Shown here: one piece after another, positions 23,974 to 63,346 of the stretch | How the letters are laid out: each line of letters starts with the position of its first letter | How positions within the stretch are numbered: position 1 is the first letter of the stretch | From: Pirellulales bacterium | GTDB taxonomy: Bacteria; Planctomycetota; Planctomycetia; Pirellulales; JAICIG01 | Length of the DNA stretch: 64,000 bases | Direction of reading: 5' to 3' | Assembly: GCA_040901675.1 (NCBI GenBank) | Contig: JBBDYJ010000035.1 | Span: forward strand, 74,054 to 138,053 | Translations under genes and position numbers: made by a program | The notes under the pieces: generated by a model | What the model was told of the DNA's origin: nothing | Databases searched by the model: none | What the model saw: the letters and a program-made list of their open reading frames with translations, nothing else

Positions 23974-24006
23974 GACAGAGGTCGGAGGTCAGAAGTCAGA
24001 GGTCGG
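23974..24006. repeat. Heptamer array (CAGAGGT-type) abutting a stop codon
   Basis: GACAGAGGTCGGAGGTCAGAAGTCAGAGGTCGG. Confidence 0.8.
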
Positions 24007-24008
24007 TC

Positions 24009-24240
24009 GGGTGGCTGGTGGCAAAGCGTCAGCGTGCCCCAGTCCTTGTCCCCCTTCCTCCGCCCCTTCTTCTATGCCGCCACCGTTACCAGCAGCTCTT
24101 GGGCCACCGCCTCGACTTGGGCGGGGTGGCTGGTGGCAAAGCGTCAGCGTGCCCCAGTCCTTGTCCCCCTTCCGCCGCCCCCTTCTTCTATGCCGCCACT
24201 GTTACCAGCAGCTCTTGGGCCACCGCTTCGACTTGGGCGG
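24009..24240. repeat. About 116-bp tandem duplication containing a REP-like unit and the 3' end of the ExeA-like gene
   Basis: Copies at 24009-24124 and 24124-24240 with only a few differences. Confidence 0.95.
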
Positions 24241-25006
24241 CGGCGACCGTGGGGCGTTCCTCGGCAAAGCCGATCAGCAAGGCCAGGTCGGCCAGGCGGT
24301 GGATGCGGCGCGGCACGCCCTGCGTCAGGTAAAACAGGGCCTCCAGGGCATCTGCCTCGAAGATCAACCGCGTGGCGCCTGCCGCTCGCAGGCGGTGCTC
24401 GACGTAGGCGGCCGTCTCGTCGAGCGACAGGGGACGCAGCAGGCACTTGCTTGCGATCCGCTCGTCGAGCGACGTCTTGCGCTCGATCGTCGTTGCCAGG
24501 CATGGCTGGCCGACGAACAGTATGGTCAGCACGGGGCGGGCGGCCGCCTCAAAGTTCATCAGTAACCGCAGCGCATCGAAGGCCCGGCCGTCGTCGAGCA
24601 GGTGCGCGTCGTCGATGGCCACCACGGCGTGCCGCCCCTGCGCGGCGTTGTCGGCTAGTGTCCGCTGGATTCGCTCCACCGCCTCGGCCAGCGACGACGC
24701 AGCAGGCACCTGCGCCGGATCGAGGCGTGCGGCCAGAGCGGTCACGAGCTCGGCCGCGGGCAACTGTGGAAAATCGAAGTGGACCACCGGCCTGTACCGT
24801 TCGGGCAATTGCTGGGCCAGCATCCGCACCAGCAGGCTCTTGCCGGTGCCGGGCTCGCCGGCCAGCAGGGCCGCGTGCCGTTGGCTCTCGATCGCATAGC
24901 GCAGCTTGAGCAGCGCCGCCTGGTGCGACTCGGCCGGATAATAGAGCCGCGTATCGCCGCCGGACTCGAAGGGCTTGGAGTTGAGCCGCCAGTAAGACTC
25001 GTACAT
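24188..25006 (-). CDS. ExeA-family AAA ATPase
   Basis: MYESYWRLNSKPF, GEPGTGKS, IDDAH, GQP, GVPRRIHRLADLALL. Confidence 0.92.
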   Translation of the reverse strand: MYESYWRLNSKPFESGGDTRLYYPAESHQAALLKLRYAIESQRHAALLAGEPGTGKSLLVRMLAQQLPERYRPVVHFDFPQLPAAELVTALAARLDPAQVPAASSLAEAVERIQRTLADNAAQGRHAVVAIDDAHLLDDGRAFDALRLLMNFEAAARPVLTILFVGQPCLATTIERKTSLDERIASKCLLRPLSLDETAAYVEHRLRAAGATRLIFEADALEALFYLTQGVPRRIHRLADLALLIGFAEERPTVAAAQVEAVAQELLVTVAA

Positions 25007-25007
25007 G

Positions 25008-25886
25008 TCAGGCTCGCACGAAGGTTTCCACAATGTCCCACTGCGCGATGCCGTACCGCGCCAGCGACCGGCCCACGGCCTGGCAATCTTCCATGGTCGA
25101 GTGGCGCGTGTCGCGAACCACCAGGGCGGCGTCGATCATCGGGTGGCAGTCGAGGATCGACATCCGGCGATCGCCCGCCGCACCGATCCACGGGCCGCCG
25201 TCGATACAAACCAGCGCGTATTGGTGGACCAGCGACTCGATCACGGACTGCACGCGGGTCGCGACCCTGGCCGTGCGGGCGCCGAAGGCCAGCGAGGTCG
25301 CCGGCAGCAGTGTGACCGGCTCGGCCAGCGACTCCACCAGCGCTTCGCTCAGCGGCTGCTGCCCGAACAGCAGGTCCTGCCAGCCCGCCTGGGGCACGAT
25401 GCCCAACTGGTCGGCCAGTTGCGGACGCCCAAAGTCGGCTTCGACCAAGGCAACCTTGCCAAGCTTGCCGGCGGCAAGGCGGGCCAGCGCCATGGCGAGC
25501 GTGGTGCGTCCCTCGCCGCGGCGGCAGCCGGTCACCAGGATCGACCTGGGCCGCGTTGCCCCGGTCAAGGTCGGCAAATAATCGCAGAAATAGCCGGCCG
25601 GATCTTCCAGCAGTCGATTGACGGCGTCGGGCCACTCGAACCGCTGCACCTCGTACGCGGGGAGCATCGGTTCCGGCGCCTTGGACGTTTCGACGGCGGC
25701 TGGAGCACTCGCGCCCGGTGGATGCGCGACTCGGCCGGAGTCGGGCGCCACCGGGTCAAGCGGAATGTGCGGCGCCGCGATCGGCGGATGCCCGCTGGCC
25801 CTTCCTTGCTCGGCCGGCTGCGCCGTCGAGACCTGCTGGTCCTGCTTCTGATAGGCGCGGATGAATGCCTGGTCGAGCGTGCTCAT
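25008..25886 (-). CDS. CpsD/CapB-like (BY-kinase/ParA-type) P-loop protein
   Basis: MSTLDQAFIRAY, degenerate Walker A GCRRGEGRTT, LVEADFGRP, CIDGGP. Confidence 0.75.
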   Translation of the reverse strand: MSTLDQAFIRAYQKQDQQVSTAQPAEQGRASGHPPIAAPHIPLDPVAPDSGRVAHPPGASAPAAVETSKAPEPMLPAYEVQRFEWPDAVNRLLEDPAGYFCDYLPTLTGATRPRSILVTGCRRGEGRTTLAMALARLAAGKLGKVALVEADFGRPQLADQLGIVPQAGWQDLLFGQQPLSEALVESLAEPVTLLPATSLAFGARTARVATRVQSVIESLVHQYALVCIDGGPWIGAAGDRRMSILDCHPMIDAALVVRDTRHSTMEDCQAVGRSLARYGIAQWDIVETFVRA

Positions 25887-27307: not shown

Positions 27308-27363
27308 ATAGTAAGAAAAAACGACCTGTACTTTTCATGGCTTTCCATAGCCGAGGGCGCAGT

Positions 27364-29864: not shown

Positions 29865-29883
29865 GGCTGGATGGGAGAGCAAA

Positions 29884-30548: not shown

Positions 30549-33500
30549 ATGGCAGCATCCGACATCGTCATCCAAGGGGCCCGCGAACACAACCTGCGGG
30601 ACGTGAACCTGGTCCTGCCGCGAAACCGGCTGATCTGCCTCACCGGCGTCAGCGGTTCGGGAAAAAGCTCGCTGGCCTTCGACACGCTGTACGCCGAGGG
30701 GCAGCGCCGCTATGTCGAGAGCCTCTCCAGCTTCGCGCGGCAGTTCCTGGGCCAGATGCCCAAGCCCGACGTCGACTCGATCTCGGGACTCAGCCCGTCC
30801 ATCTCGATCTCGCAGAAGTCGAGCGGCCAGAACCCGCGCTCCACCGTCGGCACCATCACCGAGATCTACGACTACCTGCGGGTGCTGTATGCCCGCACCG
30901 GCTTGGGCCATTGCCCCAAGTGTACCCGGCCCATCACGGCCCAAACCCGCGACCAGATCCTCGACCGCATCTCGACGCTGGCCGAGGGCACACGGTTCAT
31001 CGTGCTGGCCCCCGTGATCAAGGCGCAAAAAGGGGAATACCGCGATCTGTTCGAAGACCTGCTCAAGCAGGGGTTCGTCCGCGCCCGCGTCGACGGCAGC
31101 CTGGTCTCGCTCTCCGACAACTTGAAGCTCGACCGGCAGATGCGGCACAACATCGAGGTGGTCATCGACCGCCTGGTGGCCGCTCCCGGATTGCGGCCGC
31201 GCCTGGCCGAAGCCGTCGAGCTGGCGCTGCGGATGGGCGACGGCAACCTGATCGTCGCCACCGAGGCCGCTGCCGCGGACCAGCCGGCGCCCGCCGAGGC
31301 CGCGCCGCGCCGCAAGCGCCGCGCCGCTGCGGCGCACAACGACCTGCAGCTCTCGGCCCATTACGCCTGCACGCACTGCGGCCTCAGCTTCGAGCCGCCC
31401 AGCCCGCAGTTGTTCAGCTTCAACAGCCCGCAGGGGATGTGCCTGGCGTGCGACGGCCTGGGAGAGATCTACAACTTCGATCCGGCGCTGTTGATCCCCG
31501 ACCCCGGCCGCTCGTTCAAGCAAGGCTGCATCGAGCTGATCGGACCCTGGACCGACATGGGCCGCTGGAGAAAGCACATCTACCACGGAGTAGCGGAGAC
31601 CCTGGAGCGAACCGTTGGTCTCGATCCGGGCGACCTGCTCGAAACGGCCTGGGAAGAGCTCGATCCCGCGCTGGCGCGGCAGTTGCTGTGGGGCACGGGC
31701 GAGATGCACGTCACCTACTCCTGGAAGCACGGCGGCGGAGTTCACAAGTACGGCGGCAAGTTCGAAGGCATCATCCCCGAGCTGTTGTCGAAGTACCGCA
31801 ACTCGAAGAGCGGCATGCAGCGCCGCCAGTTGGAAAAGTACATGCGCGTCATCGGCTGCGAGGCCTGCCGCGGCGCCCGCCTCAACGAGCAGGCCCGCGC
31901 CGTCACGCTGGCCACGCGGCATCCGCGCTTCGCCGATCGGTCCGCCCGGGCGCTGCACGAAGTCTGCTCGCTGGCCGTTTCGGACGCGGCCGACTTCTTC
32001 AGCGAGCTGGAACTGGGCGCCACCGGCCAGTTGATCGCGGCCGAAGTGCTCAAAGAGATCCGCGGCCGATTGGGCTTTCTGACCAACGTGGGGCTCAATT
32101 ATCTCTCGCTCGATCGCACCGCCCCCACGCTCTCCGGCGGCGAGTCGCAGCGCATCCGCCTGGCCGGCCAGATCGGCTGCGGTCTGGTCGGCGTGCTCTA
32201 CATCCTCGACGAGCCCTCGATTGGACTGCACCCCCGCGATAACGACCGGCTGCTCGCCACGCTGGCCAAGCTGCGCGACCTGGGCAACACGGTCGTCGTC
32301 GTCGAGCACGACGAAGACACGATGCGGGCCGCCGACCACCTGGTCGATTTTGGCCCCGGCCCCGGCGTGCGCGGCGGCGAAGTGGTCGCCTCCGGAACAG
32401 TCGAAGCCGTTTGCAGCCAACCCCGCAGCCTCACCGGCCAGTATCTCGCCGGCCGGTTGAAGATCGAAGTGCCTCCCAGCCGCCGTCCCACGGGCGAGGG
32501 CTGGCTGAAGATCGTCGCCGCCGCGGCCAACAATCTCAAGCAGGTCGACGTGGCGATTCCGCTGGGCACGTTCGTCTGCGTCACGGGTGTCTCCGGCTCG
32601 GGCAAGAGCTCGCTTGTCAACGACATCCTGGTCGAGGCCTTGCGCCGCGACCTCAACGGCGGCCTGGGCGAGCCGGGCCCCCACCAGCGGATCGAGGGGC
32701 TGGAGCACCTCGACAAGCTGATCGCCATCGATCAGTCGCCGATCGGCCGCACGCCCCGCTCGAACCCGGCCACGTACATCAAGGTCTTCGACGACATCCG
32801 CCGGCTCTACGCCCAACTGCCCGAGTCGAAAACCCGCGGCTACCAGGAGGGGCGGTTCAGCTTCAACGTGGCGGGCGGGCGCTGCGAGGCCTGCGAGGGG
32901 AACGGCTCGAACCGCCTGGAGATGGATTTCCTGGCCGACGTCTGGGTCACCTGCCCGGTCTGCGAAGGGCACCGCTTCAACCGCGAAACGCTGCAAGTCC
33001 GCTTCAAGGGCAAGAGCATCTCCGACGTCCTGGAGATGGACGTCCAGCAGGCCCTGGATCACTTCGAAAACATCCCCAAGGTGCGGCACAAGCTGCAAAC
33101 GCTGCACGACGTGGGGCTCGACTACCTGAAGCTCGGCCAGCCCTCGCCCACGCTCTCCGGCGGCGAGGCCCAGCGGATCAAGCTGGCCCGCGAGCTGGTC
33201 AAGAAGAGCACCGGCCGTACGCTCTACCTGCTCGACGAGCCGACCACCGGGCTGCACTTTGCCGATATCCGCATGCTGCTCAAGGTGCTGCACGACTTTG
33301 TCGACGCGGGTAACACCGTGCTGGTGGTCGAGCACAACCTTGACGTGATCAAGACGGCCGACTGGGTCATCGACCTCGGGCCTGAAGGGGGCGAGGCCGG
33401 CGGCCGCATCGTGGCCTGCGGCACCCCCGAGCACGTCGCCGGCTGCGCCGGTGAGGAGGGAAGGGGTGAAGGGGTGAAGGGGGGAAGGGGAGAAGAACCT

Positions 33501-36500: not shown

Positions 36501-37859
36501 GTCGCCTCCGGAACGCCAGAGCAGATTGCCGCAGAGGCGGCAATCCGACAAGGGGACAAGGCGACAAGGGGACAAGGCGACAAGGCGATAAGCCCCGCGG
36601 CCGAGGACACGTTCAGGCGGCGGGTGCCTGGGTCAAAGCGTCAGCGTGCCCCAGTTGACCCCCCGTCTTCCGTTCCCCTTGTCGCCTTGTCGCCTTGTCG
36701 CCTTGTCGATTCAGTCCCTCCCTCCCCTCCTTTCTCCTTTCGCAGCCACACCGCCGAGGTTCTTGCCCCGGTCCTCGCCGCCGGGCCGCACGCCGAGCGC
36801 CGGCCCTACGACTTCACCGCCCACCTGGCGACCCGCGATGACGACCTGGAACTCCACGAGGTGGGACGCGACGCCCAGATGCCCTGGGAGCAGGATGGCC
36901 GCCGCTGGCATACCGTCGACCGCGTCGGCCGCAACGGCCGGCCTTGCCGCTGGGACGGCCGGATCCTGGCCAGCATCGTCGACCGCATTCACGAGCTGGG
37001 CCAGTTCAGCTCCACCAATTGGAACGCGCGGACCATCGTGGAGATTTCGGCTGCCCGCAAGGCCGACGGCTGGTTCATGCACGCTATCACCGGCGAAGAG
37101 TGGCTCTTGAAGCTCAAGTTCCGCGTCGCCAAGCGCACCTTCCAGCGAGAAGAGCTCGTCTCGCGGCTCGACCTCAAGCCGCTCAACGACCTGCCCGACC
37201 TGCCCGTCTACGGCTCCGAGCCGCGAGTGCAGTGCAAGCAGCTTCGCGGCCCATGGCAGGAAGTGCAGTTGAAGGTCCACTCTCTCGACGAGGTCGACCG
37301 GCCCGCCTTCTGGGAGTTTCTCTCTCAGGCGGTCGCCGGCTTCCGGCAGTTCACCGAGCGGGTCGAGCAGCAGCCCGAGGATGTCATGCCCTGGAAGGTG
37401 CTGGGCCGCAAGTGGCACCTCTCGCGCAAGGGCTTTCCGCCCGGCAAGAAGGTTTCCTGGGACACGACCGTGTTGGAGGAGCTGTGCGAGCTGTTGGCCG
37501 AGACGGCGCCGTCGGGCCAGTTTCTCTGGAACAACCAGCAGGTGGTGCACCTTTGCGTCAACGGCGCGGGCGAGCCTTGGGCCACCATCCATACCAAGCG
37601 GCCGGCCGCCGTCGACCTGGTGCTCACCGGCCCCAAGAACCGCTTCGCCCTGGGCCGCGTGGCCCAACTGGGCCACGACCGCCAGGTCGAGACCGACCGC
37701 CCTGACAAGGACATGGTCAAGCTCAAGTTCGTCGAGGCCGCGCAGGTCGTCAGCGACGAGCTGGCCCGTTTCCTTCAGGAGCACCTTCGTGCGGTCCTCG
37801 TGGGGGCCGAACGGACAACACTCACCCGACGCGCCAGCGAGAGACCCTCCCCACACTAA
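30549..37859 (+). CDS. uvrA: Excinuclease ABC subunit A, tandem double UvrA with C-terminal extension
   Basis: Four ABC cassettes (GVSGSGKSS x3, GPSGSGKSS), four LSGGE signatures, zinc fingers; about 370 aa extra C-terminal region. Confidence 0.97.
33460..33495. repeat. In-frame octamer array (GAAGGGGN) within uvrA
   Basis: GAAGGGGT GAAGGGGT GAAGGGGG GAAGGGGA GAAG. Confidence 0.85.
36547..36708. repeat. In-frame inverted octamer arrays enclosing a REP-like unit within uvrA
   Basis: (GACAAGGS)x5 at 36547-36586 and (SCCTTGTC)x4 at about 36675-36708; the centre holds CAAAGCGTCAGCGTGCCCCAGT, identical to the unit at 24022 and 24137. Confidence 0.92.
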
Positions 37860-37929: not shown

Positions 37930-37978
37930 CTGACCTCTGCCTTCTGACCTCTGACCTCTGTCCTCTGCCTTCATCCTT
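37930..37978. repeat. Heptamer array (CTGACCT-type) just before an ATG
   Basis: CTGACCT CTGCCTT CTGACCT CTGACCT CTGTCCT CTGCCTT. Confidence 0.85.
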
Positions 37979-38630: not shown

Positions 38631-38750
38631 CAGCTCACGTCAATCTGCCCCCGGCTTGGCTAGCCGTCTTGCGTGTGTTGCATCGAATGCTGGTCCGTTC
38701 TATTGCGGCGGGCTACACTTGACACCCAAAGAGCGGGAGGTCCAGGACCC

Positions 38751-39302
38751 ATGGCACGCAAAAGTCGGGCGGGAACGACAAAGAGTGCGGTTTCAGCAAA
38801 CCAGATCGAACGCTCGATTGTGGTGGTCCGCGGCCAACGGGTTATGTTGGATGCGGACCTCGCCAGACTGTACCGCGTGTCTACCAAAGCGCTCAATCAG
38901 GCGGTCAAGCGCAACTTGAATCGATTCCCACCCGACTTCGCGTTCCGCATGACTCGACCGGAGTTCAACAACTTGAAGTCACAAGATGTGACCTCAAGTT
39001 GGGGCGGTCGGCGCACCCTTCCCTGGGCCTTCACTGAGCATGGGGTCGCCATGCTGAGCAGTGTCCTGCGCTCACCCATGGCTGCCCGGGTCAACATTGA
39101 GATCATGCGGGCGTTCATCCGCCTTCGCCGTCTCCTGGCGACGCCAGGCGAGCTCGCTCAGCAAATAGCCATACTCGCGCAAACGGTCGACCTTCACGAC
39201 GATCAGATCAAAGCACTGATTAACGCTCTTAAGCAAATGATGGCGGAGCCACCCAAGTTGAGAGAAATCGGGTTCCACGCACTCCGCCACGAAAAGAAAT
39301 GA
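38751..39302 (+). CDS. ORF6N (KilA-N-like) domain protein
   Basis: RGQRVMLDADLARLY...LNQAVKRN..RFPPDF...AFTEHGVAMLSSVLRS; C-terminal IGF. Confidence 0.92.
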   Translation: MARKSRAGTTKSAVSANQIERSIVVVRGQRVMLDADLARLYRVSTKALNQAVKRNLNRFPPDFAFRMTRPEFNNLKSQDVTSSWGGRRTLPWAFTEHGVAMLSSVLRSPMAARVNIEIMRAFIRLRRLLATPGELAQQIAILAQTVDLHDDQIKALINALKQMMAEPPKLREIGFHALRHEKK

Positions 39303-39357
39303 CGGTACTCGTCGATCTACGCAACCCCCCAGTCAGTAGTCAGTGACCAACAAACGG

Positions 39358-39611
39358 ATGGCACGCAAGCGAACGAAGAAGACGGATTCCGGGAAGAAAT
39401 CGGGCCCCCCTGAGGCAGATATCCGCAGGCGATTCGCCGCCGGCCTGCGGAACGTCTTCGGGCTGTACCGCCCGCTGGTGGATGAATGGTCCTTGTACGA
39501 CGCTTCGCGATTTCCACCGCGGCTAATCGCTACCGAGAAAGGGGGCGAAATGCAAGTCGCGCAGGCGACGCAGTTCGACCAGATCCGGCAAAGTGCTGAG
39601 GAAATGAACAG

Positions 39612-39615
<4 letters not shown>
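39358..39615 (+). pseudogene. Zeta-toxin/AAA-like ATPase remnant lacking the P-loop domain
   Basis: Basic N-terminus joined directly to PEADIRRRF..GLRNVFGLYRPLVDEWSLYDAS...PRLIA, which resembles zeta-toxin-like C-termini; no Walker A. Confidence 0.65.
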
Positions 39616-39872
<257 letters not shown>

Positions 39873-41938: not shown

Positions 41939-42043
41939 GACGACGACGATCGTTTTTTCCGGCCGTCTGTCCGCCTCCGGCGGAACCGTGCTGCAAGTCC
42001 GCCGCCGTTCGGCCTAGAGGCTCTCGACAGGCAGGCGGAACCT

Positions 42044-42071
42044 CTGTCCTCTGACTTCTGACTTCCGACTT
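42044..42071. repeat. Heptamer array abutting a stop codon
   Basis: CTGTCCT CTGACTT CTGACTT CCGACTT. Confidence 0.8.
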
Positions 42072-45000
42072 CACCGTTGGCGTTGGAAGGCCGCTTCATG
42101 CCGCAGGATCCGTAGTATCCGAGCAAAGCTCGCCTTGCGGTTGATCACGGAGAACTGCGAATCGGAGGCGGTCTTTTCAAACGTGGCGAGGATTTCTTGC
42201 AGCCGGTCCGAGCCCTCTTGTGGCCGGCCCGCCGCCCGCGCAGCGGCGATTTGCTCCAGCTCCGACAACCGCAGATATTTGATCCAGCCCGGTCCGTTTC
42301 TCGTCGCGTCTAGATCCCGCCTCAGTGCCCGCACGTCGCGCAGCCACTGCTGTGAATAGCCGCCAGTGCCGGGTTGCCTGCGAGCCGCCTCTTGTCTCGT
42401 CCTTGAACGATCCGCACTGCCGAGCCCCGATCCGTTCCTGGAACTCTCGGAAGTCCGGCCTTGACCGGCGCTTGCCGCGCTTCTCGCGGCCGGCTTCTGG
42501 CTGGGAACAAGCTCCTTTCCCGCCAGTGTGAACAGGTTGCCGCTGGCCAGATCGGCAGTGTCGATGGCCAAATGCAGGTTGCGCGGCTCGTCCATCACGC
42601 GCAGCCGAACCAGCATCTCCATCTTTCCGCCTTCCTGGAAAACCGACAATCCCGCGGACAGCCGGGCGCTCTCCACGCGGAGAAGCCGGCCCGAGGCCGC
42701 CGCGGCCGTTGCCTTCGCGCCCCACTGGACCGCGTCGCCCGTGGCGTTGACCGCGAACTGCGAAGCATCCAGAGCGGCCAGTGCCCCATCCCGCGCCACA
42801 AACAGCGGGGCCACACGCGGATCAGCGTCCACGGGCGCGGCATGGGCCAACTCAAAAGCCTTTTGGGTCACTTTCACGGCGGCCAGCGCCACATCGCGGC
42901 CGACAAACAGCCCCGCCACGCGCGGATCGGAATCGATCGGGGCCGTGCCGTGAATCGCCCGAAGTCCATCGTTGGCGACGTTGAGCGCGGCCTGCGCCGT
43001 CTTCTGGGCCGCGAACAGGACCACGATTTGCGGATCGGCGTCCACCGGCACCGCGTTCACGGCCGCGCTGACTGCGTCATACACCTTCGCTTTCGCCTGG
43101 TAGGCGAGCCTTTTCACGTCGCGGTCGATTCCCTTCGCGTCCTTGTCGATGCCCTTGGCAATCTTGTCGAGCCCCGCGGCTTTCTTCCAGGCTGCGACGG
43201 CCTTATTGAAAGCCGCCTCGGCTCTGTCCAAGGCGACCTTGGCTCGATCCCGATCCGCTTTCACTCCCGCCAGATCCTTGACCCGCTGCGCTTTCACCGC
43301 TGCGCGGCGCGCGTTGATCTGCCGGCTGATGCCGTCCAAATCCCGCTTTGCCTTGCCGATGGCGCCCAGGTGTTGGCCTCGCTCGCGATTCACCTGGGCC
43401 CGCATCTTGGCGATGTCCGTATTGATCCGGTTCAGATCGGCTTCGGCGCGCCGCAGCGCGGCTTCGTTCGTGGCCCGGTCACGCCTCACCTGGGCCCGCG
43501 CATTGGCAATGTCGGTATCGATCCGTTGCACGTCCCGCTTGGCTTGTTCCAAGTCGGCGTCGGCCTTGGCAAAGTCTCGCTCAGCCTGTCTCGCCCAGGC
43601 CAGGATGTCGTCCGAGACCTTGCTCTGAAACGAATTGGCAAAGTCATTCTTGAACCCGGCCGAAAACTGCCAGGCCGGTCTCTCCAGCGAACTCGTACAG
43701 CTCACGTCCACCTCAAACGCGTCGGCCAATCGGCCGACCATGGTCACTTCCGACCGTTTGGCATTGAGATCCGCCAGGGCCGCGACGCGATTGCCCAGCA
43801 GGTCGCAGCCGCCGCTGGCCCGAAAATGGCTGTCCCTGCTCGCGGCCAACAGCAAGTCGAGCTTCGCCTCGTGCAGTTGAATGGGGCCCAGTCGGAACTC
43901 GCTGACGGTGGCCTTGACCGAGGTCCGCGGCTTGCGGCTCGAAACGTCCACCAGTGCGTCGACTTCCGCCGCGCGCGAGCCGAACAGGTAGAGCTGGCCC
44001 TTGAGTCCTACACCGTTGGGCACGCCCAGCTCCTCCGATCCGCCGGCGGGCGCATAGAGAACGTCTACTGCCCGCAAATCGAAGTCGGGCAGCAGCACGC
44101 CGACCACCCTGGCGTCGATGCCCCCGTGCGCCGCGCTGGCCAGATCGTTTGCCACCGCCACTAAATCATCTCGAGTCAACGAATCGACCGAACCCCGGAA
44201 GAAAACGCTCGGCACGCCTTGGCGCGTCGTCATGCCGCCCGCCACGCTGACGAGCTTGGCGGCCAGCTTCATATCCCCCTTTACCCCGACCAACATCCGC
44301 GGCGGTCCACCGCTGGTGCTTTCGGCGCGCAGCTCCAAGGCCGCCGAGTGCAGCTCCAAGCCTTGGATACCCAACGCGTTGCGCCAAGGCCCGTCGTCAT
44401 CGGACCGTGCCGAGATCGCCAGGCCGCTCTTGCCGCCTCTCCCGGCCGCGTCCCCCAAGAACAAGGCGCGGCAATCGAATCGCCGTTGGTCGCTGCCGCT
44501 GCCGACGAGCATGTTGAATGTCACACCCGCCATGGGTCTGCCCGTCACCAGCAGCGCCAGATCCTCGATCCGGAAGGCCTCCGGCAAGCCCGCCAGCGTG
44601 CCGCTGGCCAGCTTCGCCCGCAGCTCGGCATCTTTGGCCGCCGTGCTCATCAGCCGGCCTTGCTCGCGCGCCTTGCGGAACGTCTCCTGGTCAAAGTTCT
44701 TGAGAATCACGCCTTCGAGCACCAGGTTGTCGATATTCGGCCCCAGCATTTGCAGTCCGGCGAGAATCTCCGCGCGCACTTCCACCGCGGTGGCCAGGTT
44801 CACACCGTCTTGCACGCTCAGCGAGAAGTCGCCGCTGCCGTAGATGTCTCGATAAAACTCGCGGACCGCGGGTGCCATCGACGCCGACGAAACCGTCAAG
44901 CGATGGCGTGAGAAAATGACTACCGGCGTGGCCATCTGCAGTCCTTGGCCGGCGATTGTTCCCACCGCCGGGATCAACTGGTCCAGGTTCTGAGTGGGCA

Positions 45001-45628: not shown

Positions 45629-45664
45629 GCACGGCAGGGGCGCCACGCACGGCAGGGGCGCCAC
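45629..45664. repeat. 18-bp tandem duplication
   Basis: GCACGGCAGGGGCGCCAC x2 followed by partial inverted GTGGCCCTGC. Confidence 0.85.
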
Positions 45665-45950
45665 GTGGCCCTGCGGCGACGAACGGACGATCTCCCAGGG
45701 CCGGCTGCCGGGCGGCGACCCGCCACGCGGGCGGCGTGATCGTCCTCCCTGGGGCGCGAGGGGTTGCCCGGCGTCTGATGCTTCACTCTTCCGCCCTCGC
45801 TCACGTTGCGGCCCAGAGGATGCGTGCGATCGACCTGCCCATTGCAGGTTCGAGTCGGGTTGGCTCCGTGAACGGAGCCGTTCCTGCTTGGCAGGCCCTT
45901 GAGCATACGGGAACAGGCCCCGATGTCCAGTAGAAAACCAGACTCTGTCT

Positions 45951-46824: not shown

Positions 46825-46980
46825 ATCTTGGTGCTTGGTGCTTGGCACTTTGGTGCTTGGATCTTGGTGCTTGGTACTTGGTACTGGGTGCTTGGTGCTT
46901 GGTGCTTGGGAAGGGCTCCGGCGTCCAAAGTCCAAAGGCCCAAGTCCCAAGACCCAAGATCCAAGAACAAAGACCTAAGT
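46825..46980. repeat. Inverted heptamer arrays (CTTGGTG)n / (CCAAGAY)n
   Basis: 46825-46910 and 46924-46980, separated by about 13 bp. Confidence 0.92.
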
Positions 46981-47108
46981 GCTACCCCGCAAGGGCCGCC
47001 CCCGCTAAGATACGCTATTCTTTCATTCGCGACGGCCCCGATCCATTCATCCGGCGGCCCTTTTCTGCCCTGCCGCAATCGAAAATCAAAAACCCCACGG
47101 AGCCGCTG

Positions 47109-49019
<1,911 letters not shown>

Positions 49020-49319
49020 GGACATGTCATTGGTCCTTTGTCATTGGTCCTTTGTCATTGGTCCTTTGTCATTGGTCATTAGCCGTTTGCAGGGCTACAC
49101 GTACCTGGAAGACCAGTGAGCGTCTTCGGACCGCCGCGCCGCCCGCGTCGACGGCTTTTTCGCCCCTTGGTGGCAAACCGGCCGCCGCTGGCCTATAATT
49201 GCTAACACCTTGCAATCCCGCCTGTTGCGCTTCGCGCGGGTCGCCCCACGGCCCTCCTGCTAGATCCGCACCGACCCGACAATCCAAAAGTTCGCGACCA
49301 CGGCCGCTGGAACCCCAGA

Positions 49320-50714
49320 ATGCACAATCGCGCCACGCCTGCCTCTGAACGCCATGCGATCTTGGACCTTGGATCTTGGAACTTAGAGCTTGGATCTTGG
49401 ACCTTATGTCTTGGAGTGGCGGGCAGGCTCGCCGAAAATCGCGCCCGAAAGCTCCTGGTCTTGGCCGCCTTGGGCATGTGCGGCTGCAATTCCTCGCGCG
49501 AGGCATCTGACGCCGGCCAAGCGGCTGCAACGCCCCAGGCGGTCGAAGTCGCCGCGGTCCAGGTACGAAGCTGGCCGAAAACGGTCAGGGCCCAGGGGAG
49601 CATGATCGGCGACGAGCATGCCGTGATCGGCGTCAAGGTGGCCGGCCGGGTGCGGGAAGTCATGGTCGACCTGGGGTCGGTCGTGTCGGCCGGCGACGTG
49701 CTGGCCAGGCTGGAAGCCGAAGATTTCGACCTCCGGGTGCAACAGGCCGAAGCACAGATCAACCAGGCGCGGGCCGCCTTGGGCCTGAAGCCCGGCGACG
49801 ACGATGAGCGGCTCGACCGCACGAAAGTGCCGCTGGTCCTGCAGGAGCGAGCCTTGCTCGACGAGGCCCGCTTGAACGACGAGCGCGCCCGGCAGCTTAT
49901 CGAGAAAAACGTGATCACCACCGCCGAGCTGCAGGCGACCGAGGCGGCCTTGCGGGTGGCCGAAGCACGGTTCGAGTCGGCCCTGAATAGCGTGGAAGAG
50001 CAGCTTGCGACCCTGGCGGTGCGCAAGGCCGAGCTGGCGGTGGCCAGGCAGTCGCAGTCCGATGCGGTCATCCGGGCCCCGTTTTCAGGGGTGGTGCAGC
50101 AGCGGCACGTGGGCCCCGGCGTCTATCTGAACGTCGGCCAGCCGGTGGCGGCCTTGGTGCGCACCGATCCCTTGAGGTTCCGCGCGGGGGTTCCGGAACG
50201 GCAGTCGGCCCGGCTGGCGGTGGGGCAGGCCGTGCGATTGTCGGTGGAAGGCATGGAACAACCGATCGAAGCCCGGATCTCGCGGATCAGTCCGGCCCTG
50301 GATCTTTCGAACCGTTCGTTGACCATCGAGGCCGACGTCGCCAATCCCAACTTCGCCCTGCGGAGCGGCTTGTTCGCGGAGGCCGAAATCGTGATTGACG
50401 CGGGGCAGCGGGCCTTGGCCGTGCCCGCGCCGGCCGTTGTGGAGTTTGCCGGCGTGGAAAAGGTATGGCTGGTTCGCAAGGGCCAGGCCGGCGAGCAACG
50501 GGTGCGGACGGGCCGCCGCAACGGCCAATGGATCGAGATCCTCGATGGCTTGCAGGAAGGCGACCAGGTCGTGGCCCGCGGCGAGCAAGGCCGGGCCGGC
50601 CAGGTCACGGTGCTGATCGAGCCGGGGGGCACGATCGAAGCCGGCGACTCCGGGCTGGTCCGGGGTAAAGAGGACCCGCCTTCCGTAAAAGGGTTGCCCG
50701 CCGTGGGAGGCTGA
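49320..50714 (+). CDS. RND periplasmic adaptor (MFP)
   Basis: IGVKVAGRV, RAPFSGVV, LRSGLFAEAEI; lipobox-like GMCGC; start uncertain. Confidence 0.9.
   Translation: MHNRATPASERHAILDLGSWNLELGSWTLCLGVAGRLAENRARKLLVLAALGMCGCNSSREASDAGQAAATPQAVEVAAVQVRSWPKTVRAQGSMIGDEHAVIGVKVAGRVREVMVDLGSVVSAGDVLARLEAEDFDLRVQQAEAQINQARAALGLKPGDDDERLDRTKVPLVLQERALLDEARLNDERARQLIEKNVITTAELQATEAALRVAEARFESALNSVEEQLATLAVRKAELAVARQSQSDAVIRAPFSGVVQQRHVGPGVYLNVGQPVAALVRTDPLRFRAGVPERQSARLAVGQAVRLSVEGMEQPIEARISRISPALDLSNRSLTIEADVANPNFALRSGLFAEAEIVIDAGQRALAVPAPAVVEFAGVEKVWLVRKGQAGEQRVRTGRRNGQWIEILDGLQEGDQVVARGEQGRAGQVTVLIEPGGTIEAGDSGLVRGKEDPPSVKGLPAVGG
49359..49415. repeat. Heptamer array (CTTGGAY) within the MFP N-terminus
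   Basis: ATCTTGG ACCTTGG ATCTTGG AACTTAG AGCTTGG ATCTTGG ACCTTAT GTCTTGG. Confidence 0.85.
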
Positions 50715-50718
50715 GGGG

Positions 50719-50777
50719 GGCAGAAGGAGGAAGGAGGAAGGAGGAAGGCAGAGGGCAGAAGGAGGAAGGCAGAAGGC
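50719..50777. repeat. Heptamer array (GAAGGAG/GAAGGCA) just after the MFP stop codon
   Basis: GGCAGAA GGAGGAA GGAGGAA GGAGGAA GGCAGAG GGCAGAA GGAGGAA GGCAGAA. Confidence 0.85.
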
Positions 50778-50868
50778 GTCAGACGCATTCGTTCGCCTTG
50801 TCGCCTGGGTCACGCTGACGCTTTGACCCAGCCACCCTGCCGCGAGTCGCAACCAGAGGAGCTTTGCA

Positions 50869-60215: not shown

Positions 60216-60622
60216 GGGACTTTGGCTCGCTGGAAATGGAAACGAGGCGGCTTTCCCGAGCGAATGCGGGCGGGATAAGGTAGCGAGATTGCCCGGCCGG
60301 GGCAACACCGATCCGCCCGGCCGGATGTGCCCGCCAGCCGCCGAACAGCGACCAGATCCACGTGTTCGGCCCACACCCACCCCTTTTTTGGCGCCGCCGC
60401 CTCTCAGGGCCCCTGGGGAGGGCTGTCCGTCTTCGTAACGCGGAGGCGGTTCCAGGGGGCGTTTTGGCCAGGGGCACTGCCATCGAAAGGCATCGCGAAG
60501 AACCGACCAGACGACGAGGAACTGCTCGGCTTCCGCGCCGAGGCGGAGGAACTGATGGGCATCGGCGAGGGGGCAGACTCCGGGGGTGAACGATGGGCCC
60601 AGAGCTCCGAACGGGAGGAAAA

Positions 60623-60949
60623 TTAATGCACGCGCAGCGATTGTTCGGTAATGAGGATTTCGAGCTGGTCGAACTCGCGCAGCAGGTCGCGTTTGAGCTG
60701 CGCGATGAACCGCGTGCTGCCCTGACGGCGGAAATCCAGCACGGTCATGAAGATGACCTCATCGAGGTAGAGCCGGCTCTCGCCGTGCCAGATGCCGCGC
60801 AGCGGGAACTCGCGCTGTTGAGAGGTCAGGCCGCCGAACCGGGCCACCAACCGCCGCTCCACCGCGTCAAAGAGCGCCTCGGCGATGGCTCGGCCGGCGT
60901 TGTCAGCCAAGGGGAGATAGAGGTCGTAGCGCCTGGCCGCCCTAGCCAT
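60623..60949 (-). CDS. Small hypothetical protein (possible ferredoxin/PII-like fold)
   Basis: RYDLYLPL...FGGLT...GIW...LKRDLLREFDQLEILIT. Confidence 0.7.
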   Translation of the reverse strand: MARAARRYDLYLPLADNAGRAIAEALFDAVERRLVARFGGLTSQQREFPLRGIWHGESRLYLDEVIFMTVLDFRRQGSTRFIAQLKRDLLREFDQLEILITEQSLRVH

Positions 60950-61142
60950 GATCGCGCCCCGCGCGCCGACCGTCGGCCGCCGCGACGACCTCGAAGGGCA
61001 ATTTCTTGCGGCGCAGCAACCGAATCTGCCGCTCGCTCACCAGGTAGACCGGTTCCTGACTGATTCGGGAGATCGGCCCGGAGGCGACCAGGACGCGCCA
61101 GACTTTGCCCCACTGTTCAGATGGAATCCGGATGGCCCGCAT
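60942..61142 (-). CDS. Small basic hypothetical protein
   Basis: 66 aa, 8-bp overlap with the downstream gene. Confidence 0.6.
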   Translation of the reverse strand: MRAIRIPSEQWGKVWRVLVASGPISRISQEPVYLVSERQIRLLRRKKLPFEVVAAADGRRAGRDHG

Positions 61143-61435
61143 CGCTCAGAATCCTTGGCCGAAAGCGTGAACATTGTGACTTCTCACCAGTGTATCTGGA
61201 AAAGCGAAAAGCGGAAACCGCACTGCTGCGCATTGATGAGAGAGCCGGCGGTGCTGACCGTCCCGTACGCGCGACGCGATTGCCTTTGTGGGCCGGTTGG
61301 TCGGCGACCATGAGACGGCGCTCTGGGTTGTCGATCTGGCCGAGCCGCTGGATTCGCCTTATCGGGTCGGCGCTTTACAATAGTGCTTGGTTGGGAAGTG
61401 GGCAGCGGGGAACGGGGAAGGCAGGGGAACGGGCC

Positions 61436-63346
61436 GTGTCGGTAACCCAAGATCCGAAGCGAACATCCGCCGCGGCGGAATCGAAGACACCGAACCGCAT
61501 CTGGCTCGATGGCTCCGTTCTGGCCTGCGCTTGTCCCGACTGCCAGGCCCTGATGTCGATCAGGCTCTGGCTGATGGTCGCCGACTGCTGGCAGTGCGGC
61601 GCCAGTGTCGAACTGACCCAGGAAGAACAGCAAGAGGCGATTCGACTGCTCGAGGGTGGCCGGCTCCAGGCGGCGGCTGGCGCCAGCGAAACGGATGGCG
61701 GGCAGCGGGTCCGCCCCCAGCCGCCACCGTCGGCGCCTCGCGAACCGAGCCAGCCGGCCCCCGGCTTGCCCTGTTCGCCTCCCGCCACCTGCCATCCGCC
61801 ACCTGCCGCTCATCCGCAACCTGCTACCCGCCAGCCGCCACTGCCCGCCCGGATTGCGGCCGCCCAGAAGCCCAGCCGCGCGAGAGCCAGGCTGGATGCC
61901 ATTCGTGCGCTGGGCGAGACCCGGTTGTGGCTGGCCAACTGGTGGCGCGACCTGCCGTGCTGGTTGACCAGCCTGGTGCTGCACATGCTGCTCATGATCC
62001 TGCTGGGCCTGTGGGCCGTTCCGAGCGGGGGGCCGCCCAGGCCGTTGACGCTGGCGACGCAGGTGAACTCGTTGGACCAGTCGGGCGACGCCGAACGATT
62101 CTTCGAGCCTGATGCCGGGCCCGAGTTCGACGACCCTGGCGCCGTGATGCTCGAGCCGGTCGACGAGGCCGATCCGTTTGCCCGGTCCGAATCGGAAACG
62201 CTGGTGGGAGTTGCTTTGCACCCATCGGGCGACGAGCCCGAACCGCTCCCCAGCGCCTTGTTTCCCAGCGGTCCGGCCGAGCTGCCTGCCATGCTCGTGG
62301 GCCGCGACCCCCGCTTGCGAAGCCACCTGGTCGAGCGTGAAGGCGGCACGATCGAAAGCGAGGCGGCCGTGGCTCGCGGGCTCCAGTGGCTGGCGCGGCA
62401 CCAGGACTACGACGGCAGTTGGGACCTGCGGGGGTTCTGCCTTGCCGGCGACTGCGATCGGCAATGCCGCGACGCGGCGGCCGCAAGCGACAAGGTGTCG
62501 GGCACCGCCCTGGCGTTGTTGCCCTTCCTGGGGGCCGGCCAAACCCACCTCGCCGGCGAGTATCGGGAAGTCGTGGCCGGGGGGCTGGATTGGATGGTCG
62601 ACCGTCAAGAAGAAAGCGGTGGGATGCCGCTCGAAACGCTGGGGCGGATGTACGGCCACGGTCTGGGCGCCATCGTGTTGTGCGAGGCGTATGGGCTGAC
62701 CCGCGATGAACGCTTGCGGGGCCCGGCGCAGCGTGCTCTCGACTTTATCGCGCGGGCCCAGCACCCGCGGGGCGGCTGGCGCTATCGCCCTGGGTCGCCC
62801 GGAGACATGAGCGTCGTGGGCTGGCAGATCATGGCCCTGCGCAGCGGGGAAATGGCCTACCTCGGCATTCCGCCCGACGTGTTTGACAAGGCCGCCGGCT
62901 TTCTCGACACCGTCCAGGTTCGTCCCGACCGCGGGCTGTTCGGGTACTTGCCGGGCAATCAGCCGACGTCGGCCATGACGGCCGAAGGACTGCTATGCCG
63001 GCAATACGCGGGTTGGCGAGCCGACGAGCCGGCGTTGGCCGCGGGCGTCGATTGGCTGATTCAGAACCATCTGCCGGCTCGCGGCCGCGAGGACATTTAC
63101 TACTGGTACTACGGGACGCAGGTCATGCATCACGTGGGCGGGCCGGCTTGGCAGGCATGGAACGAGGCGCTGCGCGACCTTTTGGTCTCGATGCAGGAGA
63201 CCGAGGGACACGAGGCAGGCAGTTGGTCGCCCCGGCGCGGCTTCGACTATGCCGGCGGCCGGCTGTACGTCACTTCGCTGTCGATCTGCACCCTGGAGGT
63301 TTACTACCGGCACATGCCGCTGTACCGGACCGACGCCGTGCAGTGA
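61436..63346 (+). CDS. Prenyltransferase/squalene-cyclase-repeat membrane protein with N-terminal zinc ribbon
   Basis: CPDC...CWQC; SLVLHMLLMILLG TM segment; WLARHQDYDGSW, GGWRY, YYWYYGTQ, LEVYYRHMPLY. Confidence 0.9.
   Translation: MSVTQDPKRTSAAAESKTPNRIWLDGSVLACACPDCQALMSIRLWLMVADCWQCGASVELTQEEQQEAIRLLEGGRLQAAAGASETDGGQRVRPQPPPSAPREPSQPAPGLPCSPPATCHPPPAAHPQPATRQPPLPARIAAAQKPSRARARLDAIRALGETRLWLANWWRDLPCWLTSLVLHMLLMILLGLWAVPSGGPPRPLTLATQVNSLDQSGDAERFFEPDAGPEFDDPGAVMLEPVDEADPFARSESETLVGVALHPSGDEPEPLPSALFPSGPAELPAMLVGRDPRLRSHLVEREGGTIESEAAVARGLQWLARHQDYDGSWDLRGFCLAGDCDRQCRDAAAASDKVSGTALALLPFLGAGQTHLAGEYREVVAGGLDWMVDRQEESGGMPLETLGRMYGHGLGAIVLCEAYGLTRDERLRGPAQRALDFIARAQHPRGGWRYRPGSPGDMSVVGWQIMALRSGEMAYLGIPPDVFDKAAGFLDTVQVRPDRGLFGYLPGNQPTSAMTAEGLLCRQYAGWRADEPALAAGVDWLIQNHLPARGREDIYYWYYGTQVMHHVGGPAWQAWNEALRDLLVSMQETEGHEAGSWSPRRGFDYAGGRLYVTSLSICTLEVYYRHMPLYRTDAVQ
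61781..61840. repeat. Degenerate in-frame heptamer array encoding a Pro-rich linker
   Basis: CCCGCCA CCTGCCA TCCGCCA CCTGCCG... Confidence 0.55.

Follow-up and report, generated by a model that had tools for sequence, protein, structure and literature searches.

Tandem heptamer and octamer arrays at gene boundaries of a planctomycete genome and their relation to S23p-type hairpin cassettes

What are the short tandem repeats that recur at gene ends in the window, the 64,000-nucleotide stretch of Pirellulales DNA analyzed here, and did genes travel between them? An earlier note on this DNA had read them as scars of a traffic in repeat-bounded cassettes, in which period and architecture are kept and unit sequence is not.

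Arrays in the window and in the genome

TRF recovered every array that the earlier note had listed, multiple short arrays with different units and mostly of heptamer or octamer period (Table 1). Those described as abutting stop codons (23972, 39798, 42050, 49025 and 50719) lie at or within 5 nt of them. The array described as preceding a start (37930-37972) sits between the stop of the uvrA fusion and a 215-aa ORF starting at 37983, and the inverted pair reported between divergent genes was found at 46827-46909 and 46923-46979. Four arrays had been placed in frame. The two at 33460 and 36547 are indeed translated in the uvrA-uvrA-X ORF; those at 49359 and 61781 are ambiguous, both lying in N-terminal ORF extensions upstream of likelier starts. 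The translated array of linker 1 has GTPEHVAG on one side and an 11-residue stretch on the other. Linker 2, with about 72 aa, exceeds the 13-65 aa found in 13 relatives, and its two octamer arrays are mutually inverted, the RNA fold of the whole hairpin reaching z = -7.2. The fold of the inverted pair upstream of speA gives -74.5 kcal/mol (z = -4.5). Support from assemblies was uneven: over 46000-47434 a contig of the probable source run agrees throughout (0 differences), and a contig from a single RNA run, for which contigs only were used, likewise matches 49285-49492 (0 differences), but source-run contigs are interrupted at the arrays of 49025 and 50719. Contigs of a congener also break at arrays of the window's junctions.

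Table 1. Arrays, duplications and associated genes, in positions of the window
Feature	Position	Strand	Context and basis
Metallophosphoesterase gene	23119/23185-23973		TAG 23971-23973; array at 23972 begins 1 nt before TAG end
Heptamer array AGGTCAG x4.7	23972..24004	+, G-rich on +	TRF
Tandem duplication, 116 bp x2, 96% matches	24009..24240		TRF
uvrA-uvrA-X fusion ORF, 2436 aa	30549-37859		Stop 37857-37859
Octamer/24-mer array GAAGGGGT x4.5	33450..33495	+	In frame, linker 1 of uvrA-uvrA-X
Hairpin element	36535..36741	+	In frame, linker 2; octamer arms 36535-36592 (G-rich) and 36677-36708 (C-rich) on either side of REP-like core 36635-36654, then CTCCTTT x2 36727-36741
Heptamer array CTGACCT/CTGCCTT	37930..37972	+, C-rich on +	TRF
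TA-type remnant region	38673..39827	+	ORF6N gene, Zeta_toxin-like remnant, 71-aa ORF
ORF6N-domain gene	38673-39302	+	Within the TA-type remnant region
Heptamer array GACTCCT x9.1	39798..39861	+, C-rich on +	TRF; encodes last 9 codons and TGA (39825-39827) of the 71-aa ORF
Short heptamer array TCTGACT x3.3	42050..42072	+	TRF; overlaps convergent stops 42059-42061 (+) and 42071-42073 (-)
Cargo-less inverted pair	46827..46979		Divergent spacer upstream of speA (ATG 47109); CTTGGTG x11.7 (46827-46909, G-rich), 13 nt, GTCCAAA/AAGACCC (46923-46979, C-rich)
Array TGTCATTGGTCCTT x3.8	49025-49080	+	5 nt past speA TGA (49017-49019)
Heptamer array CTTGGAC x6.4	49358..49406	+	TRF; just upstream of probable start and signal peptide of MFP gene, in frame if ATG 49320 is used
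Array GAAGGAG/GAAGGCA	50719-50777	+, G-rich	4 nt past MFP TGA (50712-50714)
Short heptamer array GCCACCT x3.4	61784..61807	+, C-rich on +	TRF; upstream of likelier start (61925) of prenyltransferase-like repeat protein ORF

These runs of 7- and 8-nt repeats at gene ends are real and form part of a population of about 600 in the genome. In the 5.4 Mb planctomycete genome TRF identified 461 arrays of period 7, 146 of period 8 and 16 of period 6; counted as TRF rows, period 7 occurred 483 times in the genome and 0 times after block shuffling, and period 8 gave 6 rows in the shuffled genome. Most arrays are intergenic (87% of those of period 7). Their units take 71 canonical heptamer and 32 octamer forms, five canonical heptamers accounting for 283 of the 461 period-7 arrays; most units hold GG and no GGG, and the commonest includes a GGAGG core. 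Gene starts are uncertain because gene boundaries were taken from our own crude gene finder. Placement at gene boundaries is non-random genome-wide, as the earlier note had supposed, with array-to-stop distances between -20 and +9 nt in 158 of 430 cases.

The arrays are also polar: read 5' to 3', the G-rich strand leads away from the adjoining gene. Arrays at most 30 nt from a gene on their left are G-rich on the plus strand in 123 of 133 cases, those adjoining a gene on their right are C-rich on that strand in 137 of 149, and the rule is valid across all four gene orientations. Neighboring pairs follow the order G to C 59 times and C to G 5 times. The 39798 array is an exception, since it is C-rich on the plus strand while abutting the gene on its left. 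Most neighboring G-to-C pairs lack complementarity: their units match about as well as in random pairing, re-pairing the arrays gives the same duplex energy (-0.757 vs -0.757 kcal/mol per nt), and the fold z-score falls below -2 in only 17 of 50 such pair regions.

Strand-specific cis signals might produce such polarity, outgoing RNA being rich in G or purines and incoming RNA in C or pyrimidines, which would insulate genes against read-through and antisense transcription. The polarity does not depend on gene orientation, arrays are densest in convergent spacers (106 per 127 kb, as compared with 68 per 237 kb in divergent ones) and the GGAGG core marks the commonest unit, all of which speak for a signal; G-quadruplex roles for heptamers are discussed in the available parts of Rehm et al. 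(PMC4692102). However, arrays also stand within a probable operon (MFP-RND), where a terminator would hurt, and most units carry only GG rather than GGG. We consider cis signaling improbable; its candidate routes would be Rho acting on C-rich inbound transcripts, or G-quadruplexes, R-loops or Shine-Dalgarno-like ribosome contacts.

S23p loci and comparison with a congener

A link to four-helix-bundle genes, which the earlier note had mentioned for some phyla, is borne out in the order. S23p, the four-helix-bundle family of 23S rRNA intervening sequences (IVS; PF05635), is flanked on both sides by period-7/8 arrays at 25 of 31 loci in 19 genomes of the order, in G-to-C order at 21 of these 25; by our reading, the left unit recurs on the right as its exact reverse complement at 12 or more of the 25. 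Array density within 250 nt of S23p is 3.83 per kb, 19-fold that elsewhere in the same loci (0.20 per kb). Nearly every S23p locus in the 19 genomes has a unit sequence of its own, in line with the claim that period and architecture are kept and unit sequence is not. Both S23p genes of this genome are enclosed by inverted arrays of one family, and in the fold of one cassette (C10) the arms close the whole element (z = -4.2). These two S23p genes compare with about 600 arrays, and neither is in the window, where no array pair encloses a gene: the window holds two cargo-less hairpins, and its remaining arrays are solo arms, which are incapable of forming a stem.

At four of five S23p sites of the congener our genome differs, the fifth being conserved. 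One is a clean 598-nt indel whose empty site retains 2.3 units; a second is an empty site with neither array nor gene, where the contig ends before the right junction; at a third, three REP cores (hairpins) replace S23p between the same arms; and at the fourth the same arms hold a CHC2 zinc-ribbon ORF as cargo. These sites show that, between two congeners, cassettes come and go together with their arms and conserved arms exchange their cargo. In all the clean polymorphisms the change concerns small cargo, 0.3-0.7 kb in length, between arms and leaves flanking genes unaffected. Cassette traffic, as originally proposed, is thus evident in the genus, but the array pairs of the window contain no gene.

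The comparison shows, furthermore, that arrays persist at a junction even as their copy number and unit change. In a sample of congener arrays chosen by similarity to arrays, 21 of 37 being unmappable, 14 of the 16 mappable ones have an array at the same site in both genomes, often with other units or lengths; most arrays are therefore stable landmarks and not fresh scars, though solo arrays may be scars of lost cassettes. The congener has a 64-nt array of other units at the 37930 site and keeps the 46827..46979 pair in place with one unit fewer and a remodeled second arm. Its ortholog of the 71-aa ORF ends with its own TAA and lacks the array. Two of the congener's S23p cassettes have arms of the same unit family as the 49025 array.

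Because units vary by locus and between congeners at one site, a sequence-specific cis signal is disfavored. Variation of units and copy number at a given site is also what plain simple sequence repeats (SSRs) would give, if slippage-favored heptamers grew in place in free spacer with neither element nor function. No gradient of unit decay was seen along the 82 arrays checked, and structure 3' of the 166 stop-abutting arrays was not above that of other spacers (300 controls, p = 0.51), both as SSRs would have it; a heptamer excess in bacterial SSRs and a polymerase-footprint idea are in print (PMC4692102, available parts, citing its ref. 33). Against this stand the recurrence of few unit families at hundreds of loci, the strict polarity to the nearest gene, the enrichment around S23p with complementary arms, and the coming and going of whole arrays together with cargo. 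Other genera of the family, moreover, have 1 array in 150 kb of speA-locus sequence, which tells against SSRs and against cis signals alike, as these genera manage without arrays. We regard plain SSRs as unlikely, although they deserve somewhat more weight than cis signals.

Gene-end duplications, REP-like units and larger genes

Duplicated gene 3' ends had been reported, and two were found. Copy 2 of the 116-bp duplication carries the last 53 nt of an AAA-ATPase gene (24188-25033, minus strand), copy 1 holds a duplicate of that gene end, and each copy contains a REP-like core (24023-24042 and 24138-24157). In the second case a 34-bp direct repeat (48987-49020, 49087-49120), which contains the final 9 codons of speA together with the stop, brackets the 49025 array. 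The REP-like units of the earlier note are likewise present, the window having 4 copies of the 20-nt core where 0.01 would be expected; one copy, on the minus strand (50805-50824), follows the 50719 array, and the RND permease start (50869) lies 45 nt beyond it. Genome-wide the core has 178 copies, 168 of them intergenic, often in tandem with fixed linkers, and an octamer array forms a fixed flank of it. Target duplications of unique sequence are rare, the direct repeats that flank arrays being mostly REP cores.

Neither transposase nor integrase was present among 22 ORFs scanned between 23 and 63 kb, as the earlier note had it, but the genome encodes four Y1_Tnp (RAYT/IS200-type) genes, which could move REP-like units. 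Its suggestion of toxin-antitoxin cargo holds as to the remnant: a Zeta_toxin-like gene that is intact in the congener has a deletion of about 380 nt at about 39408 in the window. No array pair, however, bounds this remnant or the ORF6N gene.

A stronger form of the cassette hypothesis would have the flanking genes (speA, MFP, RND, uvrA and others) shuffled by an array-dependent mechanism, with the arrays as scars. It could appeal to several observations: speA adjoins neither MFP nor RND in any of 14 relatives' loci, congener homology ends exactly at the 39798 array, the segment 41945-45944, which holds a 1092-aa gene, is replaced by other sequence in the congener, and copies of the duplicated speA end lie on both sides of an array. 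Yet synteny loss between genera is commonplace, the clean polymorphisms concern small cargo and not flanking genes, the 14 co-located arrays have the same neighbors in both congeners, and same-family G-to-C pairs around large genes (ABC transporter, sulfatase, aminotransferase) resemble two independent spacers. Movement of housekeeping genes as cassettes is not supported, and we consider this form very improbable.

Hairpin cassettes and their known relatives

The cassette interpretation of the earlier note is thus partly supported. With moderate confidence, we regard the window arrays as ordinary members of the population of about 600, which in the order serve as arms of S23p-type hairpin cassettes, and as a planctomycete version of the heptameric intergenic repeats that Xanthomonas and Nostoc carry. 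Gene-boundary arrays of few related unit families, their G-rich strand running 5' to 3' away from the gene, would be the paired, mutually complementary arms of IVS-type hairpin cassettes, with S23p as the usual cargo and REP-like hairpins or another small gene in some. Cargo-less pairs and solo arrays, all that the window has, would be arms left after cargo loss or the product of cargo-free spread. Array length may drift through replication slippage. Once transcribed, paired arms would form an extended double-stranded stem immediately behind the stop codon, and RNase III may cut this stem, as with rRNA IVS stems, setting mRNA ends. The simplest candidate mechanism for moving cassettes is recombination between arrays. 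The arrays may equally be a preferred target of S23p genes and not part of the element.

Rehm et al. (2015, PLoS One, PMC4692102) described G-rich heptamer repeats in the intergenic DNA of Xanthomonas (GGGAATC) and Nostoc (GGGGAYT). As given in the available parts of that article, these resemble the present arrays: they are tandem 7-nt units, about 90% intergenic, and share the polarity, with the 5' end of the G-rich strand by the nearer ORF in any orientation. They likewise overlap stop codons, favor convergent spacers, and are retained between the same genes in related species with varying length and sequence. The same parts mention no link to S23p cassettes or cargo exchange (PMC4692102), and they describe one unit family per genome, unlike the many forms here. 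Most units here, unlike theirs, lack GGG runs, which makes G-quadruplex folding doubtful.

Cyanobacterial STRR heptamers are known from Calothrix and Nostoc. Mentioned in PMC4692102, they and the TAACTGA direct repeats of Beggiatoaceae (PMC4679880) comprise, as here, several heptamer families in tandem, intergenic in one genome; no S23p link is stated in the available parts of either article. GTAG/CGTC-tagged REPs with RAYT transposases have been described, REPs being reported in Planctomycetes (PMC3733652), and the REP-like units here are similar in their GC-rich hairpin core, copy number and accompanying Y1_Tnp genes. Nevertheless, the arrays are tandem direct repeats and REPs and BIMEs are palindromes, and a mosaic with an octamer array as fixed core flank is not described for BIMEs in the available parts of that source (PMC3733652). 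None of the RAYT genes was tied to the REP-like core here. Rickettsia palindromic elements insert in frame in protein genes. Like the uvrA-linker repeats they are hairpins translated in frame at a tolerant site of a conserved gene, but they are another element, and the host site here is a variable low-complexity linker.

In the Coxiella burnetii IVS (Warrier et al. 2016, PMC4990558), as given in the available parts of that article, the S23p ORF is preceded by 2-3 tandem heptamers whose number varies by strain, and the first repeat is the site of RNase III cleavage. That cleavage is shown for Coxiella; for the cassettes here it would follow by analogy. The IVS occupies helix 25 or 45 of 23S rRNA, whereas cassettes here lie between protein genes, directly after stops; each arm here is an entire array of 3-27 units, and the arms of the window, unlike the IVS, lack an S23p gene. 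Both systems nonetheless enclose an S23p/PF05635 gene in terminal inverted repeats that pair into a long stem, with variable tandem heptamers just 5' of the ORF and a sporadic, element-like distribution.

Placement and polarity of the arrays

The assembly under study is that of an uncultured planctomycete (5.4 Mb in 45 contigs, ~65% GC), in which TRF revealed 2077 non-redundant arrays, including 461 of period 7, 146 of period 8, 16 of period 6 and 92 of period 9. This genome scan, suggested in the earlier note, showed period-7/8 arrays far beyond a shuffled control and concentrated at gene boundaries. Shuffling in 300-nt blocks, which approximately preserved dinucleotide content, returned 0 period-7 TRF rows (and 6 of period 8) versus 483 period-7 rows in the real genome. 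The 7-nt units, and also the 8-nt units, are repeated head to tail in at least 3 copies, well beyond chance, and thereby belong to the long simple-sequence repeats of Mrazek (2007, as cited in Rehm 2015). There are 71 canonical heptamers in total and the units are few and related; five of them, AAGGAGG (113), AAGGCAG (86), ACCTCTG (40), AATGACC (27) and AAGTCAG (17), account for 283 of the 461 period-7 arrays, and AAGGCGAC, AAGGGGGG and AAGGGGAC account for 92 of the 146 octamer arrays.

By the calls of our own dicodon gene finder (4168 genes, 84% coding, starts uncertain), 87% of period-7 arrays are mostly intergenic. Array-to-stop distances fell between -20 and +9 nt in 158 of 430 cases, and array-to-start distances did so in 40 of 354. 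Period-7 density was highest in convergent spacers (106 per 127 kb) and lowest in divergent ones (68 per 237 kb). Onset of an array within the stop codon itself (TGA-AGGAGG...) is common, and 67 of the 118 arrays located mostly within predicted genes occupy the final 60 nt, with the stop often 3-4 nt past the array end.

The polarity of the arrays is strict and independent of gene orientation. On the plus strand, 123 of 133 arrays located up to 30 nt from the left-hand gene are G-rich and 137 of 149 adjoining the right-hand gene are C-rich, and within one spacer the order runs from G-rich to C-rich 59 times and in reverse 5 times. The window arrays at 23972, 37930, 46827/46923, 49025, 50719 and 61784 keep this rule and the one at 39798 breaks it. 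Any cause given for the polarity would be an inference. As a separate genome-wide pattern, GAAGGAG-type arrays very often terminate in phase with ...GGAGGAAT(A/C)(A/G)G. ORFs reading through the array use the TAA or TAG inside this terminus as their stop codon, and in the S23p cassette of contig C10 this terminus points toward the cargo.

Every array listed in the earlier note was recovered by TRF on the window, and its observation of arrays at gene ends is confirmed. Reading of the junctions established overlap or direct adjacency at the stops it had named, and the array said to precede a start and the inverted pair said to separate divergent genes were found as described (see table). The claim of in-frame arrays stood for the two within the uvrA fusion ORF, but the other two lie in N-terminal ORF extensions upstream of likelier starts. 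Two of the proposed gene-end duplications could be verified, and in agreement with the reported absence of transposases and integrases, none occurred among the 22 window ORFs scanned (23-63 kb). Pfam matches identify the neighbours as a metallophosphoesterase, an AAA ATPase, a GTPase, the UvrA fusion, ORF6N, arginine decarboxylase, an HlyD-type MFP, an AcrB-type RND pump and an ABC exporter.

Coordinates of arrays, duplications and S23p cassettes (window positions unless a contig is named)
Feature	Location	Unit or size	Remark
Array at stop	23972		
Array at stop	39798		
Array at stop	42050		
Array at stop	49025		
Array at stop	50719		
Array before start	37930		start at 37983
Inverted array pair	46827-46979		between divergent genes
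In-frame array	33450-33495		within uvrA fusion ORF
In-frame array	36535-36741		within uvrA fusion ORF
Array in N-terminal ORF extension	49358		
Array in N-terminal ORF extension	61784		
Tandem duplication	24009-24240	116 bp x2	contains REP-like core and last 53 nt of AAA-ATPase gene
Direct repeat	both sides of 49025 array	34 bp	includes speA stop
S23p cassette	C10:378685-379211		arms GAAGGAG
S23p cassette	C20:80976-81546		arms GTGGTYG

The inverted arms of the window (46820-46985) form a stem when folded as RNA (z = -4.5), and its solo arrays have no pairing terminal inverted repeats. A contig of the probable source run covers 46000-47434 with 0 differences, and contigs from two other sediment runs extend into the 46827 array; such read data establish the presence of the arrays in the sample and no more. 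RNA evidence consists of contigs of one metatranscriptome, a small share, in which neither transcript ends nor strand can be read and gaps in coverage carry no meaning. Cumulative GC skew across 44000-52000 reaches a minimum near 48-50 kb and then rises; this could be a replication landmark or mere local gene orientation.

S23p cassettes and their traffic between congeners

S23p, the four-helix-bundle protein of PF05635 (23S_rRNA_IVP), is related to Avd, an accessory protein of DGRs, and S23p/IVS proteins constitute a widespread family that, to our knowledge, has no known function. Two S23p genes are present in the genome, both outside the window, and each lies between inverted arrays of one unit family; for comparison, arrays lie within 150 nt on both sides of only 56 of 4168 genes. 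The gene was present in 19 of 25 genomes of the order searched. Period-7/8 arrays were found within 250 nt on both sides of 25 of 31 retrieved S23p loci, on one side of 4 and on neither side of 2; of these last two, one is truncated where its contig ends. The G-rich to C-rich order was recovered in 21 of the 25 doubly flanked loci, with units exactly complementary in at least 12 by a reading of the table of loci, and nearly every locus has a unit of its own. Furthermore, array density in the same loci was 3.83 per kb beside S23p versus 0.20 per kb elsewhere.

The genome of a congener, G001 (93-97% identity in aligned stretches), contains five S23p sites that were mapped onto this genome, one of which is conserved. 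At C11:97479|97480 there is a clean empty site here for a 598-nt insert of G001 (arrays and S23p); the empty site retains 2.3 units, and these overlap the ATG with which the next gene starts. Both array and gene are absent here at C30:63082, the right junction lying beyond the contig end. At C25:290911-291152 three REP-like cores replace S23p between the same outer arrays, and at C38:28560-29220 the same arrays surround a 106-aa CHC2 zinc-ribbon (Zn_ribbon_DnaG) ORF where G001 has S23p. This ORF, which carries nested 23-nt inverted repeats with 100% and 91% complementarity (locus L191, G000:C38:28450-29320), may represent a further type of small mobile cargo. Given these filled, empty and swapped sites, cassettes come and go together with their arms, and elsewhere the arms persist and the cargo they enclose is replaced.

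Most arrays keep their place. Among 37 G001 arrays with flanks, a biased sample chosen by similarity to arrays, 16 mapped collinearly and 21 did not; for 14 of the 16 the corresponding site here also carries an array, frequently one of different unit or length. The window's pair at 46827 and its array at 37930 keep their position in G001 with remodelled units, and the 39798 array is missing there; the orthologous ORF has its own stop and homology ends at that point. A Zeta_toxin/AAA_33 gene that is intact in G001 (217 aa, L101:2594-3247), where the ORF6N gene and a 65-aa ORF flank it, has lost ~380 nt here (window 39303-39611). Contig C321 of G001 lacks the gene for a 1092-aa protein without Pfam family (42071-45349, minus strand) and in place of 41945-45944 contains ~600 nt of other sequence with small ORFs; these adjoin a (CCTTCTG)6 array abutting the stop of a conserved gene, and one of them looks HicA-like by eye. 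Overall, the repeat-bounded cassettes proposed in the earlier note are correct in kind for the genus, as the G001 sites reveal, but the proposal finds no support for the window's own arrays and large flanking genes.

G001 contigs end at arrays that correspond to junctions of the window. Several of the 810 contigs of G001 start or terminate at heptamer arrays or REP cores, C76, C167, C285 and C45 among those compared. Arrays and REP cores are probably one of the chief reasons why short-read MAGs of the genus are fragmented, and the disruption of short-read assemblies by arrays is of practical concern.

In-frame elements, REP-like cores and the reach of the cassettes

The 2436-aa ORF at 30549-37859 joins a pair of UvrA copies to a C-terminal domain (~430 aa) of no known family, and the fusion is conserved, since open frames of 2330-2509 aa occur at the orthologous locus of many relatives in the order. 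Alignment with 13 relatives places both in-frame arrays in linkers between GTPE..VA and (R)SHTG, which measure 13-65 aa in those relatives and ~72 aa in the second linker of the window. This second linker is a translated hairpin element composed of octamer arm, core and octamer arm (36525-36745, z = -7.2). The same linker of G014, a relative from another genus, contains an octamer array that belongs to the family seen in the window. In a further relative (G006, locus L134) the linker, TEFIPSECSTEFIPS..., reads like an in-frame insertion of a palindromic REP from a different family at this tolerant site. For annotators, the practical consequences are array-made in-frame insertions and changed C-termini.

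A 20-nt REP-like core with an 8-bp stem (CTGGGGCA/TGCCCCAG) occurs 4 times in the window versus 0.01 expected, and 178 times in the genome, with 168 copies fully intergenic. C-rich arrays lie 3' of the core in a ratio of 61 versus 7; the core has the octamer array as a fixed flank, and the ~100-bp unit of core and array also occurs as tandem copies. The flanks show further hairpin families, which have GTAG heads, and four Y1_Tnp genes of the genome exceed the Pfam cut-off. Direct repeats of at least 12 nt surround 42 of 671 array blocks versus 7 in the control, as target-site duplication by elements of MITE or IS type might produce, and we reject this origin since the flanking repeats are nearly all REP cores, with few unique ones (the 34-mer of speA).

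Several properties were tried as genome-wide rules and rejected. Hairpin arms fail as a general rule, as units of 59 neighbouring G-rich to C-rich pairs matched no better than random pairing and their duplex energy equalled that of the re-paired control. Polar growth toward or away from genes was dismissed because unit decay has no gradient (82 arrays, p = 0.92), and sequence 3' of arrays did not differ from array-free spacers in terminator-like hairpins (p = 0.51). Nor do genes within same-family G-rich to C-rich pairs behave as cassettes, the two S23p loci excepted: the interiors hold ordinary genes (ABC transporter, sulfatase, DegT aminotransferase, HAD hydrolase, histidine-phosphatase-family ORF) and small ORFs that are TA-like (DUF433, DUF2283) or without Pfam match. 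Because most neighbouring pairs are non-complementary, solo arms are unpairable, 3' sequence is not distinctive, decay shows no gradient and target duplication is not general, the step from the arms of S23p cassettes to all ~600 arrays as left-over arms is one that we infer.

Array density is ~11 per 100 kb in this genome, versus 1 array per 150 kb of speA loci and 8 per 56 kb of uvrA loci in other genera of the family. On these counts, albeit from small samples, it looks as though solo arrays have undergone an expansion within this genus. Searches with speA matched mostly other phyla (best 84% identity), the nearest named being Planctomycetota and Pirellulales MAGs; in loci of 14 relatives from other genera, synteny of speA with the MFP/RND pair was not found and only 1 array was present. 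Note that heptamer arrays also lie 3' of speA in unrelated MAGs (Acidobacteriota, Anatilimnocola; L009, L018, L023, L040, L041 and L050), beginning within ~150 nt, and at most of these loci within ~25 nt, of the end of the speA match, some as inverted pairs and each locus with its own unit.

Tentatively, and with considerable doubt, one might extend these observations to bacterial heptamer repeats at large, unexplained since 1990: they would be arms or footprints of widespread, integrase-less hairpin cassettes at stops and starts, in which repeat arms act as recombination handles and stay as cargo (S23p, REP hairpins, small zinc-ribbon genes) is swapped, S23p aiding spread or processing, with ~600 sites in the genus, some in frame in essential genes.

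Comparison with known repeats and intervening sequences

Many bacterial genomes contain an excess of heptamer tandem repeats, whose origin and function are described as unexplained in Rehm (2015, PMC4692102) and work cited there. The filled and empty sites and the cargo swaps in a genome pair link these repeats with S23p and make both puzzles testable. The questions that follow concern the mover of the cassettes, arms as RNase III sites that set mRNA ends, and the G-rich strand pointing away from the gene.

The fold of the C10 cassette, in which the arms close the entire element (z = -4.2), resembles that of rRNA IVS, but an IVS lies within 23S rRNA and all sites here are between or inside protein genes. 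According to PMC4990558, the IVS of Coxiella has tandem heptamers in strain-variable number 5' of the S23p ORF, and RNase III cuts at the first heptamer repeat; the cassettes described here might be processed by RNase III in the same manner. A literature search, which left much subscription literature uncovered, returned no description of S23p cassettes that have heptamer-array arms and lie between protein genes. The REP-like core is a short GC-rich imperfect palindrome in many intergenic copies, as REP/BIME elements are.

The heptamers of Xanthomonas and Nostoc, as portrayed by Rehm et al. (2015, PMC4692102), have the same polarity, stop-codon overlap included, and on that account polarity itself is not new. 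The placement of our arrays also agrees with that account, being mostly intergenic, near an ORF at the 5' side of the G-rich strand, and overlapping stops. GGG runs, a trait of the Xanthomonas/Nostoc subtype, are absent from the top units here except for GGGG-type octamers, which makes G-quadruplex formation by most units doubtful. The phenomenon is therefore a member of the known heptameric intergenic repeats, to which this analysis adds many unit families, a polarity quantified in a planctomycete, in-frame copies in uvrA, and arrays that bound exchangeable S23p-type cassettes.
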